This document shows positions 2,556-53,239 of a DNA stretch of 64,000 nucleotides, one piece after another. The stretch is taken from assembly GCF_024502345.1 (NCBI RefSeq), contig NZ_JALDNN010000002.1; one strand, given 5' to 3'. The position numbers and the translations under genes are program-made. Under the pieces are notes generated by a model. The model made no database searches, had not been told where the DNA came from, and worked only from the letters and a program-made list of their open reading frames with translations. The stretch comes from Escherichia coli (GTDB lineage Bacteria > Pseudomonadota > Gammaproteobacteria > Enterobacterales > Enterobacteriaceae). The first letter of the stretch is position 1, and every line of letters begins with the position of its first letter.

Positions 2556-3056
2556 TTAGTGATAGCGATCGATCACGCCAACCAGATAGTGGTCGGTTTG
2601 CTGCATGTTGATGCCCGCTTTTTTAGCGCTGCGGACTTCATCCAGAATGATTTGCAACAGCGTCCCGTCCACGATTTCCTCTTTTCTGTATCGCTTCAGG
2701 AAGTTAATCGCTGACTTATCGTTTGCTGCCTGGGCGTCTTCCGTCAAAGAGGTCAGCGCATTAATGCGCTTCTGGTAATCGCTTACCGTCTGCTCAAACA
2801 GATCTTCCAGCGTGGAAAATTCACCGCACCGGGCGTGTTGCTCCTGTAACACCGGCGTGGCGCCGCTCTGTTTGATGTATTCGTACATGCGCATCATTTG
2901 CGTCACCGTATTTTGCGCCTGATGACGCAAAAATAGTGCGGTGCCATTAAGGCTATTCTCGCTGCACCTCTGGCTGAGCTGAAGATACAAATTTGAGGTA
3001 TAAAACTCCTGATTCATTTGCGCATTCAGTTTTTGAACTATTCCGCTAGCGATCAT
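2556..3056 (-). CDS. ftnB: ferritin-like protein (FtnB-like)
   Basis: 166 aa; ferritin motifs (...KLNAQMNQEFYTSNLYLQLS..., ...ILDEVRSAKKAG...) resembling E. coli FtnB/YecI from memory. Confidence 0.75.
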   Translation of the reverse strand: MIASGIVQKLNAQMNQEFYTSNLYLQLSQRCSENSLNGTALFLRHQAQNTVTQMMRMYEYIKQSGATPVLQEQHARCGEFSTLEDLFEQTVSDYQKRINALTSLTEDAQAANDKSAINFLKRYRKEEIVDGTLLQIILDEVRSAKKAGINMQQTDHYLVGVIDRYH

Positions 3057-3330
3057 AGGACTTCCTTATTTCTTGTCATCTCAGAAAACGGTCACTCTTC
3101 GAAAAAACAACCAGAATAAAAGCGATTCTTTCGCTTTTTTTATTGCGCCTGGTTACACAGTCATATTCATTTTAAGTCGGGATGCTCCTTATTTAAATAT
3201 CCAACCCTACTATCGCATTTCTATCTGGCATTATTCTGTGATGGTGTTTCGATATTCACACTCCCTGTGCCAATCCTTTCTTATCGACAGTAGGAAACTT
3301 CCTCCGGCTATTCTGCTGAACACGATTAGG

Positions 3331-4150
3331 GGCACTGTTGCAAAGTTAGCGATGAGGCAGCGTTTTGTCTTATTCAAAGGCCTTACATTTCAAAAACTCT
3401 GCTTACCAGGCGCATTTCGCCCAGGGGATCACCATAATAAAATGCTGAGGCCTGGCCTTTGCGTAGTGCACGCATCACCTCAATACCTTTGATGGTGGCG
3501 TAAGCCGTCTTCATGGATTTAAATCCCAGCGTGGCGCCGATTATCCGTTTCAGTTTGCCATGATCGCATTCAATCACGTTGTTCCGGTACTTAATCTGTC
3601 GGTGTTCAACGTCAGACGGGCACCGGCCTTCGCGTTTGAGCAGAGCAAGCGCGCGACCATAGGCGGGCGCTTTATCCGTGTTGATGAATCGCGGGATCTG
3701 CCACTTCTTCACGTTGTTGAGGATTTTACCCAGAAACCGGTATGCAGCTTTGCTGTTACGACGGGAGGAGAGATAAAAATCGACAGTGCGGCCCCGGCTG
3801 TCGACGGCCCGGTACAGATACGCCCAGCGGCCATTGACCTTCACGTAGGTTTCATCCATGTGCCACGGGCAAAGATCGGAAGGGTTACGCCAGTACCAGC
3901 GCAGCCGTTTTTCCATTTCAGGCGCATAACGCTGAACCCAGCGGTAAATCGTGGAGTGATCGACATTCACTCCGCGTTCAGCCAGCATCTCCTGCAGCTC
4001 ACGGTAACTGATGCCGTATTTGCAGTACCAGCGTACGGCCCACAGAATGATGTCACGCTGAAAATGCCGGCCTTTGAATGGGTTCATGTGCAGCTCCATC
4101 AGCAAAAGGGGATGATAAGTTTATCACCACCGACTATTTGCAACAGTGCC
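3331..4150 (-). mobile_element. IS26 copy 1 (820 bp)
   Basis: 14-bp IRs GGCACTGTTGCAAA at both ends; flanking 8-mers differ (cgattagg vs ggcagacg), so no target-site duplication. Confidence 0.97.
3383..4087 (-). CDS. tnpA: IS26 transposase Tnp26 (234 aa)
   Basis: [25 protein letters not shown]... canonical Tnp26 sequence. Confidence 0.97.
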   Translation of the reverse strand: MNPFKGRHFQRDIILWAVRWYCKYGISYRELQEMLAERGVNVDHSTIYRWVQRYAPEMEKRLRWYWRNPSDLCPWHMDETYVKVNGRWAYLYRAVDSRGRTVDFYLSSRRNSKAAYRFLGKILNNVKKWQIPRFINTDKAPAYGRALALLKREGRCPSDVEHRQIKYRNNVIECDHGKLKRIIGATLGFKSMKTAYATIKGIEVMRALRKGQASAFYYGDPLGEMRLVSRVFEM

Positions 4151-4864
4151 GGCAGACGAACTACAGTTGCCGCGGGGCAGGTATTCAACGCTCCAGGTGG
4201 AGCCACTGGCATCCGGGGTACGCCGTCTGGAAGACTGTTATCGCGGGCTGCAGGAAAAAATCGTGCAGCTCGAAGGCAAAAAACGGTCGCAAAAACAGTT
4301 GATTGCTTCACATAAGAATCGTCCTTTTTATCATCTGTGGCACAGAAAAGGGGGCCAGCTCCCGGACGAGAAATGTGATGCCCTGCCCTGCCACTGCGGG
4401 CAGAAACACTGTCTCTGCCGCAGATCGGGGATTCAGACCTGGAGGTGGCGCAACGGGCAACCGGGGTCATCCGGCTGGCTACCCTGTGTGCTCAGTCGCA
4501 GAAAAGAATCCTGGAGCTGGAAAGGGATCTTGCCTCACAAAGTGAGGAGCTCGTTGACCTGCAGGCACATCCCTTTTTTAACCTGTGGGATAAATACCGC
4601 GACCTGATCCTGTTCTGGGGGGCGTGGTGACTTTTCTGGACTTTATCAGTGGATGTTGGGGGCATGAATGTTCCCGTTCCATAGCCACACACTGAAGAGG
4701 ACTGAAACCAGTGCCCGAAAATATCGTGTCTGTAATCACTGACGGGGTAGTTTTGTTTGCGACTTCGTCTGTTTTCTGGCTGGCCGTCGCTGGCTGGTTA
4801 GTCATCCTGACTCCGGTAATATTACGAAGAAAATTCTCGGCAAAGAAAAAAGTTAACAGAAATT

Positions 4865-5659
4865 ATGAATAACCTGGTTCCAGTTGGATCTCCGTCATCT
4901 CCCGGAACATTGCTTCCGGTGGCCATCGATTACCCTGCCGCCCTCGCCCTGCGCCAGATGGCGCTCGTGCAGGATGAACTGCCGAAATACCTGCTGGCGC
5001 CGGAAGTCAGCGCCCTGCTCCATTACGTGCCGGATCTTCACCGCAAGATGCTGCTGGTGACGCTGTGGAACACCGGCGCGCGCATTAATGAAGCGCTCGC
5101 GCTGACCCGGGGGGATTTTTCACTGACGCCGCCGTATCCGTTCGTGCAGCTGGCCACGCTCAAGCAGCGCGCCGAGAAAGCGGCCAGGACGGCAGGTCGT
5201 GCTCCCGCAGGCAGTCAGGTCCATCGTCTTGTTCCGCTTTCCGATCACCACTACGTCAGCCAGCTACAGATGATGGTGGCCACCCTGAAAATTCCGCTGG
5301 AAAGACGAAACAAGCACACCGGCAGAATTGAGAAGGCGCGTATCTGGGAGATCACAGACCGTACCGTCCGCACCTGGCTTAGCGAAGCGGTGGAGGCCGC
5401 AGCGGCCGACGGGGTGACGTTCTCAGTACCGGTGACCCCCCATACGTTCCGTCACTCCTACGCGATGCACATGCTGTACGCCGGTATTCCGCTGAAAGTG
5501 CTGCAGAGCCTGATGGGCCATAAATCGATTAGCTCGACGGAGGTCTATACGAAGGTGTTTGCGCTCGATGTCGCAGCGCGCCATCGTGTGCAGTTCGCCA
5601 TGCCGGAAGCTGAAGCTGTTGCGTTGATAAAAAAGTTAACCCCAGACCAATCTACATAG
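4865..5659 (+). CDS. tyrosine site-specific recombinase (plasmid resolvase, ResD-like)
   Basis: 264 aa; C-terminal catalytic region ...HTFRHSYAMHMLYAGIPLKVLQSLMGHKSISSTEVYTKV... typical of phage-integrase family; adjacent to partition genes. Confidence 0.8.
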   Translation: MNNLVPVGSPSSPGTLLPVAIDYPAALALRQMALVQDELPKYLLAPEVSALLHYVPDLHRKMLLVTLWNTGARINEALALTRGDFSLTPPYPFVQLATLKQRAEKAARTAGRAPAGSQVHRLVPLSDHHYVSQLQMMVATLKIPLERRNKHTGRIEKARIWEITDRTVRTWLSEAVEAAAADGVTFSVPVTPHTFRHSYAMHMLYAGIPLKVLQSLMGHKSISSTEVYTKVFALDVAARHRVQFAMPEAEAVALIKKLTPDQST

Positions 5660-5745
5660 GTCAACTATGGGTATACCCCAGGTTTCGACCTAAAGTAGTT
5701 CTTGTGTGGGAAACAGTCCAAGCTTAATGGGGGGCTTATCCTGCC

Positions 5746-5943
5746 TCACCTTCTACAGCTATCAATCACATTAATGATGTTCAGAAAGGCCCTCATTGCC
5801 CTAAAGAAATAAAATGCAGCCATGAAAATAAAGAATAATTGAGATACAACTCCTGCTAAATCATGGTTGCTACCAGCCACTGATAGCAACGTAAATAGTA
5901 ATGCAAGCGAAAAATATAAGGCAATTGTAGTATTTGAATTCAT
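5746..5943 (-). CDS. small hydrophobic protein, two predicted TM segments
   Basis: 65-aa ORF with strongly hydrophobic composition; no recognisable family. Confidence 0.3.
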   Translation of the reverse strand: MNSNTTIALYFSLALLFTLLSVAGSNHDLAGVVSQLFFIFMAAFYFFRAMRAFLNIINVIDSCRR

Positions 5944-6033
5944 GTATATCCCCTTATGTATAGGACTGAGGCCACCCCCAAATTTTCACTATCGCGCAGT
6001 TATTGCCTCGATATAAAAGGTGTTACCACCCTG

Positions 6034-6080
6034 AACAAGATAACAAGATAACAAGATAACAAGATAACAAGATAACAAGA
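6034..6080. repeat. ACAAGATA 8-bp direct repeats (about 6 copies), putative centromere/operator of the parA locus
   Basis: Tandem acaagata units; a second shorter block lies at 7165-7194 on the other side of the operon. Confidence 0.6.
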
Positions 6081-6082
6081 TA

Positions 6083-6385
6083 TTATCGTTGTTTTGCTTC
6101 TGCGATTAATCTGGATATCTCTGTTTTTGATAAACTTTTTAGTGCCTCTACCGCTGCCCTGACTACGTCAGAACGATTCACTCTGCTTTTACCTGAAATC
6201 ATTTCACCCGTTATAAGATCATCAATGTCTTTTAAGTTTTCTTCAAAAAAGGAAATGCTCACTGGTTTTGCTTTACTTACAGCCAATGGTCTCTCTGAAG
6301 TCACTTTGGTATTATCAATACCAGCAGTACCACCGTTAATAAACGCTGCCTCATCACGAGATGGAGTATTTGCTCTATTTCTCAC
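6083..6385 (-). CDS. small partition protein (ParG/ParB-like partner of ParA)
   Basis: 100-aa ORF with 4-bp overlap to the upstream ParA gene; typical type Ib organisation. Confidence 0.6.
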   Translation of the reverse strand: MRNRANTPSRDEAAFINGGTAGIDNTKVTSERPLAVSKAKPVSISFFEENLKDIDDLITGEMISGKSRVNRSDVVRAAVEALKSLSKTEISRLIAEAKQR

Positions 6386-7011
6386 AGAATAACCTCTTTA
6401 ACTAACGATTCGATTTCTTGTTGTGCTTTGTCATTTTGCGTTTCAAATATTGTCATTGATTCTGCCCAAGCATCTCGATGCGCTTTTCGATCACAAACTC
6501 GGGAGTTAGCCAGCCGCATTTCAGGATAATCCTTGAGTACGTCAGCTGCCTGATTTGCTTCATTGACAAACATGTTCGTGGGCGTCATGTTTAAAACGAG
6601 ATATCCCCGGACGTCCTCATTAAAATCTTTTGCTGCTGTAAAAACAGAGCATGTATGAGGCACTACATCCAGGTCCATCTGAGAAGGCCGCAACGGAGAA
6701 ATGAATACGTCAGCGGCCATCAACCCACTACGCATTTCTGCACTGTCGCGGCCAGCACAGTCTGCGATGACAAAGTCATAAGATTTCTCGTGTTCCTTTA
6801 GCATGGCTTTGATGTTGCCTGTTGCGCCAGTAACCGGAATATGGGGAAGATCTTCAGGACGATTGTTGTACCAGGTCAATACAGATTTCTGGTCATCTGC
6901 GTCGACAATGATCACTCGATTGCCCAGTGACATCAGATACGCAGCTATAGATACCGCCAGTGTACTTTTACCAACCCCACCCTTTTGACTACCCAATACT
7001 ATTATCATCAC
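6382..7011 (-). CDS. parA: ParA-family partition ATPase (small, type Ib)
   Basis: 209 aa; deviant Walker A GSQKGGVGKST at N-terminus. Confidence 0.85.
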   Translation of the reverse strand: MMIIVLGSQKGGVGKSTLAVSIAAYLMSLGNRVIIVDADDQKSVLTWYNNRPEDLPHIPVTGATGNIKAMLKEHEKSYDFVIADCAGRDSAEMRSGLMAADVFISPLRPSQMDLDVVPHTCSVFTAAKDFNEDVRGYLVLNMTPTNMFVNEANQAADVLKDYPEMRLANSRVCDRKAHRDAWAESMTIFETQNDKAQQEIESLVKEVIL

Positions 7012-8625: not shown

Positions 8626-8871
8626 TACGAAGCCCGTAAACAAAGGTTTTGCCGCTAAAGGGATCAGTTTGGATCTATTTGGATAACTAAGGGTAAATTA
8701 TTGGATCTACTCAAAGGATATGTGGATAACTCATTATGGAATCTATAGAACTTAAGTGCGTAAGGTGTTTTAAAAGGCTTCAGCTCCCCTGGTGCTTCCT
8801 CGCTCACTCGCGGGCTTCGCCCTGTCGTTCGGCTGCGGCGAGCACTGCTGGCTCTCTCTGAAAGGCAAAAT

Positions 8872-12562: not shown

Positions 12563-12618
12563 GGATAATGGTGCCAACTTACTGATTTAGTGTACGATGG
12601 TGTCTTTGAGGTGCTCCA

Positions 12619-12894
12619 GTGGCTTCCATCTCCATCAGTTGTCCCTCCTGCTCAGCTACTGAAGGCGTGGTGCGTAACGGTAAAAGTACTGCCGGACATC
12701 AGCGCTATCTCTGCTCTCACTGCCGTAAAACATGGCAGCTACAGTTCACTTACACCGCCTCTCAGCCCGGTACGCACCAGAAAATCATTGATATGGCCAT
12801 GAATGGCGTTGGATGCCGGGCAACCGCCCGCATTATGGGCGTTGGCCTCAACACGATTTTACGTCACTTAAAAAACTCAGGCCGCAGTCGGTAA
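12619..12894 (+). CDS. insA: IS1 InsA
   Basis: [91 protein letters not shown]. Confidence 0.95.
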
Positions 12895-13316
12895 CCTCAC
12901 GCATACAACCGGGCAGTGACGTCATTGTCTGCGCGGAAATGGACGAACAGTGGGGCTACGTCGGGGCTAAATCACGTCAGCGCTGGTTATTTTACGCCTA
13001 TGGCAGGATGTGCAGGACGGTGGTGGCACGCGTCTTTGGTGAGCGTACTCTGGCCACGCTGGAGCGTCTTCCGGGCCTGCTGTCGGCCTTTGAGGTCGTG
13101 GTATGGATGACGGATGGCTGGCCGCTTTATGAATCCCGCCTGAAGGGAGAACTGCACGTTATCAGCAAGCGATATACGCAGCGAATTGAGCGGCATAACC
13201 AGAATCTGAGGCAGCATCTGGCAAGGCTGGGCAGGAAGTCACTGTCGTTCTCAAAATCGGTGGCGCTGCATGACAAAGTCATCGGGCATTATCTGAACAT
13301 AAAACACTATCAGTAA
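12813..13316 (+). CDS. insB: IS1 InsB (expressed as InsAB' by -1 frameshift)
   Basis: 167-aa ORF overlapping insA 3' end in -1 frame. Confidence 0.9.
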
Positions 13317-13331
13317 GTTGGAGTCATTACC

Positions 13332-17007: not shown

Positions 17008-17279
17008 CAGAACTGGACAGAATAGGCTGTATGTCTAACTTCTGGCCACAGATATAATCGAGCCAGCAGTGCTCGCCGCAGCCGAGCGACAGGGCGAAGC
17101 CCCGAGTGAGCGAGGAAGCACCATGGAACAGTACTCATAAATTCTGCATACGCTCAATGCCTGCAAAATCACCTCCCATAGGGGTTATCCACTTATCCAC
17201 GGGGATATTTTTATAAGATCTTTTTAAATAGTTGTTAGATTTTTATTTTTAGAATGCCCACAGGCCTTTATCCATGCGG

Positions 17280-17400
17280 GTTCCAGAGAGGGATCTGTGA
17301 CAAAACGCCCTTTCAGTGTGACAAATCACCCTCAAATAGCCGCCATTTCTGTGACAAGTTGCCCTTAACCCTGTGACAAATTGCCCTCAGGAAGCGTTGC
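17280..17400. promoter_or_regulatory. F-type (RepFIA-like) iterons, orphaned: four TGTGACAA[AT]T.GCCCT repeats
   Basis: ctgtgacaaaacgccc / gtgtgacaaatcaccc / ctgtgacaagttgccc / ctgtgacaaattgccctcag at about 22-bp spacing; no rep gene adjacent. Confidence 0.65.
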
Positions 17401-17529
17401 TTTTCACAAAGTTATCCATCCCTGTTGACTCTGTTTTATGAAGTGTGACAATCTTAAAGTCTGTCACACTTCGCATGGACCTGTCATGGCGGAAATAGCG
17501 GTTATAAACCATAAAAAACGTAAAAATAG

Positions 17530-33948: not shown

Positions 33949-34768
33949 GGCACTGTTGCAAATAGTCGGTGGTGATAAACTTATCATCCCCTTTTGCTGA
34001 TGGAGCTGCACATGAACCCATTCAAAGGCCGGCATTTTCAGCGTGACATCATTCTGTGGGCCGTACGCTGGTACTGTAAATACGGCATCAGTTACCGTGA
34101 GCTGCAGGAGATGCTGGCTGAACGCGGAGTGAATGTCGATCACTCCACGATTTACCGCTGGGTTCAGCGTTATGCGCCTGAAATGGAAAAACGGCTGCGC
34201 TGGTACTGGCGTAACCCTTCCGATCTTTGCCCGTGGCACATGGATGAAACCTACGTGAAGGTCAATGGCCGCTGGGCGTATCTGTACCGGGCCGTCGACA
34301 GCCGGGGCCGCACTGTCGATTTTTATCTCTCCTCCCGTCGTAACAGCAAAGCTGCATACCGGTTTCTGGGTAAAATCCTCAACAACGTGAAGAAGTGGCA
34401 GATCCCGCGATTCATCAACACGGATAAAGCGCCCGCCTATGGTCGCGCGCTTGCTCTGCTCAAACGCGAAGGCCGGTGCCCGTCTGACGTTGAACACCGA
34501 CAGATTAAGTACCGGAACAACGTGATTGAATGCGATCATGGCAAACTGAAACGGATAATCGGCGCCACGCTGGGATTTAAATCCATGAAGACGGCTTACG
34601 CCACCATCAAAGGTATTGAGGTGATGCGTGCACTACGCAAAGGCCAGGCCTCAGCATTTTATTATGGTGATCCCCTGGGCGAAATGCGCCTGGTAAGCAG
34701 AGTTTTTGAAATGTAAGGCCTTTGAATAAGACAAAAGGCTGCCTCATCGCTAACTTTGCAACAGTGCC
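33949..34768 (+). mobile_element. IS26 copy 2 (820 bp), no TSD
   Basis: 14-bp IRs; flanks tcaattag vs gctttttt. Confidence 0.97.
34012..34716 (+). CDS. tnpA: IS26 transposase Tnp26
   Basis: Same sequence as copy 1 in the track. Confidence 0.97.
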   Translation: MNPFKGRHFQRDIILWAVRWYCKYGISYRELQEMLAERGVNVDHSTIYRWVQRYAPEMEKRLRWYWRNPSDLCPWHMDETYVKVNGRWAYLYRAVDSRGRTVDFYLSSRRNSKAAYRFLGKILNNVKKWQIPRFINTDKAPAYGRALALLKREGRCPSDVEHRQIKYRNNVIECDHGKLKRIIGATLGFKSMKTAYATIKGIEVMRALRKGQASAFYYGDPLGEMRLVSRVFEM

Positions 34769-41919: not shown

Positions 41920-42302
41920 TAACTGAGTATTTTTGAATAGCGACGCTGGATGCCGATTGGTCTGAACGGCCCGGCGATCGCCGGGCATACCATTGGCGCC
42001 GGCATCGTGCTGGTAACGACCATATTAGGGCGTTTGAGCAGTTGCCTGGCCTCACGCAGGGAGACTGGATTAACTGACCGCTGACAAAATGCCTGACAAT
42101 GACAGTCCGTTTTGTGCCAGATATAGTCATTCACACCCTGAGAGTTACACTTTTAAGTGATTCAGGGTATGCGCTTATTGGTTACGAATATTGTGCCAGA
42201 ATCATGTGATTCGATGATTGCCGCTTTGCTTTCGAGCCAGTAAGTGCTCCACGTTCGCTAACGAATACTCAGGGCATGCAGAAAAACGGTAATGACTCCA
42301 AC

Positions 42303-42806
42303 TTATTGATAGTGTTTTATGTTCAGATAATGCCCGATGACTTTGTCATGCAGCTCCACCGATTTTGAGAACGACAGCGACTTCCGTCCCAGCCGTGCCA
42401 GGTGCTGCCTCAGATTCAGGTTATGCCGCTCAATTCGCTGCGTATATCGCTTGCTGATTACGTGCAGCTTTCCCTTCAGGCGGGATTCATACAGCGGCCA
42501 GCCATCCGTCATCCATATCACCACGTCAAAGGGTGACAGCAGGCTCATAAGACGCCCCAGCGTCGCCATAGTGCGTTCACCGAATACGTGCGCAACAACC
42601 GTCTTCCGGAGCCTGTCATACGCGTAAAACAGCCAGCGCTGGCGCGATTTAGCCCCGACGTATCCCCACTGTTCGTCCATTTCCGCGCAGACGATGACGT
42701 CACTGCCCGGCTGTATGCGCGAGGTTACCGACTGCGGCCTGAGTTTTTTAAATGGCGGAAAATCGTGTTGAGGCCAACGCCCATAATGCGGGCGGTTGCC
42801 CGGCAT
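42303..42806 (-). CDS. insB: IS1 InsB
   Basis: 167-aa ORF. Confidence 0.9.
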
Positions 42807-43000
42807 CCAACGCCATTCATGGCCATATCAATGATTTTCTGGTGCGTACCGGGTTGAGAAGCGGTGTAAGTGAACTGCAGTTGCCATGTTTTACGGCAGT
42901 GAGAGCAGAGATAGCGCTGATGTCCGGCGGTGCTTTTGCCGTTACGCACCACCCCGTCAGTAGCTGAACAGGAGGGACAGCTGATAGAAACAGAAGCCAC
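42725..43000 (-). CDS. insA: IS1 InsA
   Basis: 91-aa [25 protein letters not shown]... Confidence 0.95.
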
Positions 43001-43073
43001 TGGAGCACCTCAAAAACACCATCATACACTAAATCAGTAAGTTGGCAGCATCACCCCCGGTAATGACTCCAAC

Positions 43074-43577
43074 TTATTGATAGTGTTTTATGTTCAGATA
43101 ATGCCCGATGACTTTGTCATGCAGCTCCACCGATTTTGAGAACGACAGCGACTTCCGTCCCAGCCGTGCCAGGTGCTGCCTCAGATTCAGGTTATGCCGC
43201 TCAATTCGCTGCGTATATCGCTTGCTGATTACGTGCAGCTTTCCCTTCAGGCGGGATTCATACAGCGGCCAGCCATCCGTCATCCATATCACCACGTCAA
43301 AGGGTGACAGCAGGCTCATAAGACGCCCCAGCGTCGCCATAGTGCGTTCACCGAATACGTGCGCAACAACCGTCTTCCGGAGCCTGTCATACGCGTAAAA
43401 CAGCCAGCGCTGGCGCGATTTAGCCCCGACGTATCCCCACTGTTCGTCCATTTCCGCGCAGACGATGACGTCACTGCCCGGCTGTATGCGCGAGGTTACC
43501 GACTGCGGCCTGAGTTTTTTAAATGGCGGAAAATCGTGTTGAGGCCAACGCCCATAATGCGGGCGGTTGCCCGGCAT
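43074..43577 (-). CDS. insB: IS1 InsB
   Basis: 167-aa ORF identical to copy c in the track. Confidence 0.9.
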
Positions 43578-43771
43578 CCAACGCCATTCATGGCCATATC
43601 AATGATTTTCTGGTGCGTACCGGGTTGAGAAGCGGTGTAAGTGAACTGCAGTTGCCATGTTTTACGGCAGTGAGAGCAGAGATAGCGCTGATGTCCGGCA
43701 GTGCTTTTGCCGTTACGCACCACCCCGTCAGTAGCTGAACAGGAGGGACAGCTGATAGAAACAGAAGCCAC
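43496..43771 (-). CDS. insA: IS1 InsA
   Basis: 91-aa ORF identical to copy c. Confidence 0.95.
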
Positions 43772-43807
43772 TGGAGCACCTCAAAAACACCATCATACAC
43801 TAAATCA

Positions 43808-44805
<998 letters not shown>

Positions 44806-52419: not shown

Positions 52420-53239
52420 GGCACTGTTGCAAAGTTAGCGATGAGGCAGCCTTTTGTCTTATTCAAAGGCCTTACATTTCAAAAACTCTGCTTACCAGGC
52501 GCATTTCGCCCAGGGGATCACCATAATAAAATGCTGAGGCCTGGCCTTTGCGTAGTGCACGCATCACCTCAATACCTTTGATGGTGGCGTAAGCCGTCTT
52601 CATGGATTTAAATCCCAGCGTGGCGTCGATTATCCGTTTCAGTTTGCCATGATCGCATTCAATCACGTTGTTCCGGTACTTAATCTGTCGGTGTTCAACG
52701 TCAGACGGGCACCGGCCTTCGCGTTTGAGCAGAGCAAGCGCGCGACCATAGGCGGGCGCTTTATCCGTGTTGATGAATCGCGGGATCTGCCACTTCTTCA
52801 CGTTGTTGAGGATTTTACCCAGAAACCGGTATGCAGCTTTGCTGTTACGACGGGAGGAGAGATAAAAATCGACAGTGCGGCCCCGGCTGTCGACGGCCCG
52901 GTACAGATACGCCCAGCGGCCATTGACCTTCACGTAGGTTTCATCCATGTGCCACGGGCAAAGATCGGAAGGGTTACGCCAGTACCAGCGCAGCCGTTTT
53001 TCAATTTCAGGCGCATAACGCTGAACCCAGCGGTAAATCGTGGAGTGATCGACATTCACTCCGCGTTCAGCCAGCATCTCCTGCAGCTCACGGTAACTGA
53101 TGCCGTATTTGCAGTACCAGCGTACGGCCCACAGAATGATGTCACGCTGAAAATGCCGGCCTTTGAATGGGTTCATGTGCAGCTCCATCAGCAAAAGGGG
53201 ATGATAAGTTTATCACCACCGACTATTTGCAACAGTGCC
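52420..53239 (-). mobile_element. IS26 copy 3 (820 bp), transposase variant, no TSD
   Basis: 14-bp IRs; flanks tggcgtcg vs gcgagaag. Confidence 0.97.
52472..53176 (-). CDS. tnpA: IS26 transposase variant (M58I, G184D relative to copies 1 and 2)
   Basis: ...[10 protein letters not shown]... and ...[10 protein letters not shown]... versus ...APEMEK... / ...KRIIGATLGF... Confidence 0.95.

Follow-up and report, generated by a model that had tools for sequence, protein, structure and literature searches.

The 64-kb stretch of Escherichia coli plasmid DNA analysed here (the window) contains, between a copy of IS26 and a gene for a ResD-like tyrosine recombinase, an interval (4151-4864) whose coding content raises a simple question. 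Two overlapping plus-strand ORFs in different frames, ORF1 (4146..4607, 153 aa) and ORF2 (4445..4630, 61 aa), are found there by ORF listing exactly as the original prediction described them, and both had been read as coiled-coil-like. Are they the debris of one frameshifted gene truncated by IS26, or do they lie in an untranslated recombination-site region? The evidence presented below leads us to conclude that 4151..4667 is almost certainly what remains of an accessory gene of a plasmid, non-functional, truncated by IS26 and multiply frameshifted (Table 1).

Table 1. Coordinates of the gene relic, its lesions and its neighbours in the window
Feature	Position	Strand	Description
IS26 copy 1	3331..4150	-	820 bp; 5′ boundary of the pseudogene remnant
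Transposase ORF of IS26 copy 1	3383..4105	-	
Pseudogene remnant	4151..4667	+	3′ 51% (codons 169-338) of the gene for a 338-aa 'hypothetical protein'; alignment to intact and frameshifted alleles, BLASTP
Frame A segment	4152..4378	+	Residues 169-243, repeat unit 1 of the coiled-coil region; within ORF1
5-bp insertion	4379..4383	+	TGCCC tandem duplication (copies 4379..4383 and 4384..4388); +2 frameshift; between the two protein repeats
Frame B segment	4385..4630	+	Residues 245-321, repeat unit 2; contains ORF2; ends at the premature TGA 4628..4630
G-run deletion	4617..4622	+	G6 versus G7 in intact alleles (1-bp deletion); C-terminal hydrophobic helix cut off
Second 1-bp deletion	4647..4647	+	Single A versus AA in intact alleles
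Sigma-70 promoter-like match	4307..4334	+	TTCACA, 16-nt spacer, TATCAT; 10/12; inside the remnant
Spacer upstream of resD	4668..4864	+	197 bp after the ancestral stop; present in all relatives compared
53-aa hydrophobic ORF	4711..4872	+	GTG start; 8-nt overlap with the resD ATG
ResD-like tyrosine recombinase	4865..5659	+	264 aa, intact; downstream neighbour defining the locus

Homology to an intact plasmid gene

An unbroken form of the gene exists. Intact alleles of 1,017 bp, encoding a 338-aa 'hypothetical protein', are present with the same synteny on the plasmids p64EVAM-7 (L001), pKPC-0cc9 (L002) and pA246-CTX-M-3 (L006) and also in L007. The window aligns to the 3′ half of these alleles from the IS26 boundary onwards, which bears out the earlier suggestion of one frameshifted gene truncated by IS26. 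When the 714 bp of 4151-4864 were aligned with p64EVAM-7, only two substitutions and three indels were found. At the protein level, frame A matched residues 169-243 of the intact protein with 99% identity over 75 aa (BLASTP, E 1e-53), and the 4385..4615 part of frame B matched residues 245-321 with 100% identity over 77 aa (BLASTP, E 1e-52). The parent protein (WP_009309921.1 in pKPC-0cc9, WP_319161900.1 in p64EVAM-7 and WP_011977814.1 in p1068-KPC) is encoded at the same position in its plasmids and shares 99-100% identity with the window segments. A megablast search of PLSDB with 4153..4864 (712 bp) matched 1,400 plasmid records, 1,277 of which were from Klebsiella, and 1,384 records covered at least 80% of the query. 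The failure to find a homologue in any frame had been named as the outcome that would speak against a gene; instead, there were 95 protein homologues, all unnamed and many of them truncated or frameshifted.

Frame disruption was judged against the intact alleles of p64EVAM-7, pKPC-0cc9 and pA246-CTX-M-3. Compared with the parent gene, codons 1-168 are missing from the window copy and three indels disrupt its frame, so that the protein cannot be made. The remnant has no start codon, no promoter-proximal region and no N-terminal domain, and it cannot be read through in any single frame to the ancestral stop codon TGA at 4665..4667. A frameshift had thus been correctly foreseen, although a single one was implied and three are present: the duplication of TGCCC, which is a single copy in the intact alleles, and two 1-bp deletions, of which the one in the G run is responsible for the premature TGA at the end of ORF2. 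ORF1 starts with a GTG at 4146 inside the terminal repeat of IS26 and takes its first two codons from the element, and is therefore partly chimeric.

Sequence homology, frame disruption, loss of the 5′ part and synteny, the four tests applied to the remnant, all identified it as a pseudogene, and no evidence contradicting this reading was found. The ORF pair should be annotated as one pseudogene, not as two genes. The extent first assigned to the remnant has to be shortened, since the gene relic occupies 4151..4667, whereas 4668..4864 is the spacer upstream of resD.

Two repeat units in two frames

Support was found for the coiled-coil-like reading of both ORFs: in the AlphaFold model of the 338-aa protein, long helices span residues 187-224 and 262-305, coiled-coil families of Pfam gave weak matches, and some truncated relatives have been labelled 'coiled-coil protein SlyX' by JGI. 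Secondary BLASTP alignments revealed that a segment of about 80 aa is tandemly duplicated within the intact 338-aa protein, with about 35% identity between residues 164-233 and 245-314. Each repeat unit is composed of a PLRAxxLxLP linker, a long helix and a PF(F/Y)xLW motif. The repeat belongs to the parent gene itself (3496-4512 in both L001 and L002), and both of its units lie within 4152..4615 of the window. ORF1 and ORF2 are in different frames because it is precisely between the two repeat units that the 5-bp duplication is located. Shorter relatives of the parent protein, 250-300 aa in length, have one repeat unit only.

The IS26 junction

IS26 copy 1, whose 14-bp terminal inverted repeats lie in the ends GGCACTGTTGCAAA and TTTGCAACAGTGCC, stops at 4150, and homology to the parent gene begins at 4151 with codon 169. 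Simple insertion of the element into the gene was considered and set aside: the 820-bp element is present with its terminal repeats and transposase ORF, but the 8-bp target-site duplication is missing, inspection of the flanks giving cgattagg at 3323..3330 and ggcagacg at 4151..4158. The left flank is an unrelated ferritin-like module that is present on many plasmids, with 2556..3056 encoding a non-heme ferritin-like protein, and IS26 copy 1 joins this module on its left to the resD module on its right. Taken together, the lack of a target-site duplication and the unrelated left flank point to IS26-mediated deletion, rearrangement or recombination between copies and disfavour simple insertion. 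The 5′ half of the parent gene and ccdAB were absent from the whole 64-kb window, which was searched in case IS26 had caused an inversion, and the exact IS26/remnant junction had no match in PLSDB or in the RefSeq complete E. coli genomes.

Further copies of IS26, 99.6-99.8% identical to copy 1, are present at 33949..34768 and 52420..53239. The window also holds two IS1-like copies (42287..43055 and 43058..43827) that are arranged almost head-to-tail, 2 bp apart, and a third IS1-like copy (12568..13331) with about 91% identity.

Order of decay

The same three indels, with 100% identity over 712 bp, were found in PCN061p6 from E. coli (L003) and in CP073793, a Norwegian K. pneumoniae plasmid (L008). 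These two plasmids, which thus share the TGCCC duplication, retain the full-length gene with ccdAB upstream and without IS26. RefSeq annotates the PCN061p6 allele (PCN061_RS24585 in NZ_CP006642.1) as a pseudogene, 'hypothetical protein, frameshifted'. PCN061p6 keeps the 5′ half of the gene and the upstream ccdAB, whereas the window has IS26 in their place. Since the indels occur in full-length, IS26-free alleles, the frame was broken before the IS26 cut; this comparison shows that the indels came first and the IS26 cut last. In L009 and L010, two other close relatives, the G-run deletion is the sole indel. The slip in the G run was probably the earliest lesion, an order among the three indels that is suggested by only a few alleles.

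These alleles also bear on whether the indels might be sequencing or assembly errors, that is, homopolymer miscalls in a 3′ part that is really in frame. The two 1-bp deletions each shorten a short run (G7 to G6 and AA to A), which is a typical type of error. However, all three lesions recur together, in identical sequence, in two plasmids that were sequenced independently and come from different species and countries, and the 5-bp duplication is not a homopolymer error. Moreover, the IS26 truncation alone takes away the start codon and half of the gene, even if all of the indels were errors. We regard an artefact of this kind as extremely improbable.

A course of events in three steps would account for the gene relic. 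Slippage in the G7 run would have dropped one G, with the loss of the membrane tail. The second 1-bp deletion and the 5-bp TGCCC tandem duplication would then have accumulated. Finally, on this plasmid only, an IS26-mediated rearrangement or deletion would have exchanged everything upstream of codon 169 for IS26 and unrelated DNA, a loss that would include the N-terminal domain, ccdAB and whatever preceded ccdAB.

Setting and constraint of the parent gene

In L001, L002, L006 and L007, the parent gene lies between ccdA-ccdB and a 'site-specific integrase' gene, with vapBC further upstream and parA and repB downstream. Its slot between ccdAB and the ResD-like recombinase was found in about 1,400 PLSDB plasmids, mostly from Klebsiella, and the position directly upstream of the ResD-like integrase is kept in L001-L003 and L005-L010 and also by the distant homologues P0097 and P0104. 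The ancestral setting is a maintenance module, vapBC - ccdAB - X - resD - parBA - repB, of Klebsiella-type IncR/IncFIB(K)-like plasmids. Comparison with resD-adjacent regions, which had been recommended for F-like plasmids, revealed that F has nothing in the slot which this gene fills: in the F plasmid ccdB is directly followed by resD without an intervening gene, while in Klebsiella-type plasmids the 338-aa gene, sometimes together with one or two small ORFs, stands between them. Across different plasmids the small ORFs in the slot between ccdB and resD are variable. In the relatives of the window, ccdAB is present upstream and oriented as in F, whereas it is deleted in the window.

A profile search of 1.84 billion representative proteins retrieved 150 relatives at E <= 1e-3. 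Diverged homologues in L012 (5001-5810) and L017 (5001-5897), which matched the N-domain profile with E values of 1e-33 and 5e-23, respectively, have vapBC or ccdAB upstream and a ResD-like integrase one or two genes downstream; more distant homologues of the parent protein sit in other neighbourhoods. The dN/dS ratio was 0.4-0.85 in the intact parent alleles (L001/L002/L006), compared with about 0.1 in the adjacent integrase. Judged from these sequences, the parent gene appears to be under weak or relaxed constraint and to be often lost; the relaxed dN/dS and the many broken homologues fit an easily lost gene.

Further into the module, a tandem array of about six 8-bp ACAAGATA units (~6034..6083) is a candidate partition (centromere-like) site. 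It lies just past the 3′ end of a 100-aa gene (6083..6385, minus strand), which follows parA (6382..7011, minus strand). Two segments elsewhere in the window, 17061..17485 and 8787..8853, showed 85-94% identity to the F interval between resD and repE (upstream of FIA repE). Such F resD-repE-like segments, together with an IncR-like parA/repB module beside resD, suggest that the plasmid may be a multi-replicon mosaic.

Predicted architecture of the parent protein

Searches of Pfam, NCBIfam, PADLOC, PHROGs and PDB sequences gave no significant family match for the ORF translations or the intact protein, and a literature search found no mention of the parent protein accessions. The AlphaFold models were of moderate confidence, with a pLDDT of 69 over the whole protein and of 75 over residues 1-166. 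The N-terminal domain is predicted to have the alpha/beta fold of the GNAT (GCN5-related N-acetyltransferase) superfamily. The sequence of GNAT motif A, Q/R-x-x-G-x-G/A, which stands before the CoA-binding helix, is represented by R-L-Q-G-H-G or R-G-R-G-V-G at residues ~100-107, before the helix 106-119, and the columns of G103, G105 and G107 are invariant or nearly so among homologues. No curated GNAT model in Pfam or NCBIfam matched the parent protein above its cut-off; three of ten distant relatives gave sub-threshold Acetyltransf_7 matches (18-23 bits versus a cut-off of 27). In all ten distant relatives that were read, the N-domain is followed by a single-unit coiled coil and by a hydrophobic helix at the C-terminus. 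Hydropathy over 19-aa windows was highest at the extreme C-terminus (Kyte-Doolittle mean 1.7-2.0).

The intact parent protein therefore appears to be composed of a GNAT-like N-domain, a coiled coil made of two tandem ~80-aa repeat units, and a C-terminal membrane helix. Within the GNAT superfamily, it is unusual for the domain to be joined to a coiled coil and to a membrane helix at the C-terminus. The N-domain is entirely missing from the window.

The spacer and the recombination-site reading

The downstream recombinase is 87% identical to ResD of the F plasmid (E 4e-163), matches Pfam Phage_integrase (E 8.6e-19) and has a dN/dS of about 0.1. Its presence gives some ground to the view that the interval, as a whole or in its 3′ 200 bp, is not translated but offers the adjacent ResD an rfsF-like target for site-specific recombination. 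The interval is directly upstream of a ResD homologue, and work on IncR plasmids has described a joint rfsF-resD unit and the insertion of variable DNA next to rfsF (PMC9412624). However, the protein matches of both frames show that 4151..4667 is derived from coding sequence. The F pifC-ccdA interval, which holds rfsF and oriV-1, gave no match in the window (blastn, word size 9, E <= 1e-3), although a short diverged rfsF core could escape this query, and the weak matches of the same interval in L001-L003 fall upstream of ccdA, in the region removed by IS26 here. Furthermore, there were no significant inverted repeats within 4668..4864, and repeat searches gave only short, chance-like pairs. 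In F, the rfsF sites are upstream of oriV-1 and ccdAB and do not adjoin resD (PMC4398462). The recombination-site alternative offered in the original prediction is thus not borne out, and we consider it very unlikely.

The deletion that left the gene relic may have had a consequence for the recombinase. As ccdAB and the DNA upstream of it have been deleted, by analogy with F probably including rfsF, resD may be orphaned on this plasmid from both its rfsF-like site and its native (ccd) promoter.

An Rfam scan of 3900..6200 gave no match at E <= 1, and a terminator scan found none in 4050..4950. The 53-aa ORF that overlaps the start of resD was examined as a constrained protein gene and rejected. 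In about 15 of 40 evenly sampled plasmid tblastn matches, its match was split in two and spanned 145 nt rather than 159; in L005, the one split-match plasmid that was aligned, a 14-bp deletion shifts its frame. Substitutions in the ORF are mostly non-synonymous, e.g. six to one among five alleles. Even with the 14-bp deletion, a 43-aa ORF remains, which begins at the same GTG and stops 9 nt before the resD ATG. The 53-aa ORF may be a leader ORF or may serve in translational coupling for resD.

Possible residual expression

Could the relic still be expressed? One proposal would be a new truncated protein that keeps some coiled-coil function, made either from the 153-aa ORF1 by means of an IS26/flank hybrid promoter or from the 61-aa ORF2. 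The end of IS26 contains an outward-facing TTGCAA -35-like hexamer (4138..4143), with TACAGT 18 nt downstream (4162..4167), an 8/12 match by inspection, and a frame is open from 4146. Against this, the hybrid site falls short of the 9-of-12 threshold of the promoter scan, which did not report it; past residue ~78, ORF1 encodes nonsense in the wrong frame, and its product has neither the N-terminal domain nor the membrane helix; and the allele had become a pseudogene before IS26 intervened. A functional truncated protein is accordingly a highly improbable product of the relic, and a residual peptide, e.g. from the 153-aa chimeric ORF that begins at the GTG in the IS26 end, is a candidate only.

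The promoter scan reported one site, compared with 0.7 expected by chance, and the sigma-70 promoter-like sequence at 4307..4334 is a consensus match only. On the basis of this match, it is possible that resD, having lost the upstream ccd operon, is transcribed from this site. The only residual role that seems plausible for the relic would be that of leader or promoter-bearing DNA for the intact resD downstream.

Significance

The remnant is an ordinary relic, and an identical frameshifted allele has already been flagged as a pseudogene in RefSeq. Its border is a further example, in a mosaic resistance plasmid, of a deletion junction produced by IS26. The parent family is widespread on Klebsiella plasmids and readily loses function, which makes it a modest candidate for functional study. 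We offer tentatively, as a possibility that is by no means the favoured one, that the parent gene defines an undescribed family of small proteins tethered to the membrane, in which a GNAT-like N-domain is followed by one or two coiled-coil repeat units and then by a membrane helix at the C-terminus, and for which a role in plasmid maintenance, exclusion or host modification is possible. If this is true, the frequent decay and high dN/dS of the family would suggest a function that is conditionally useful or costly.
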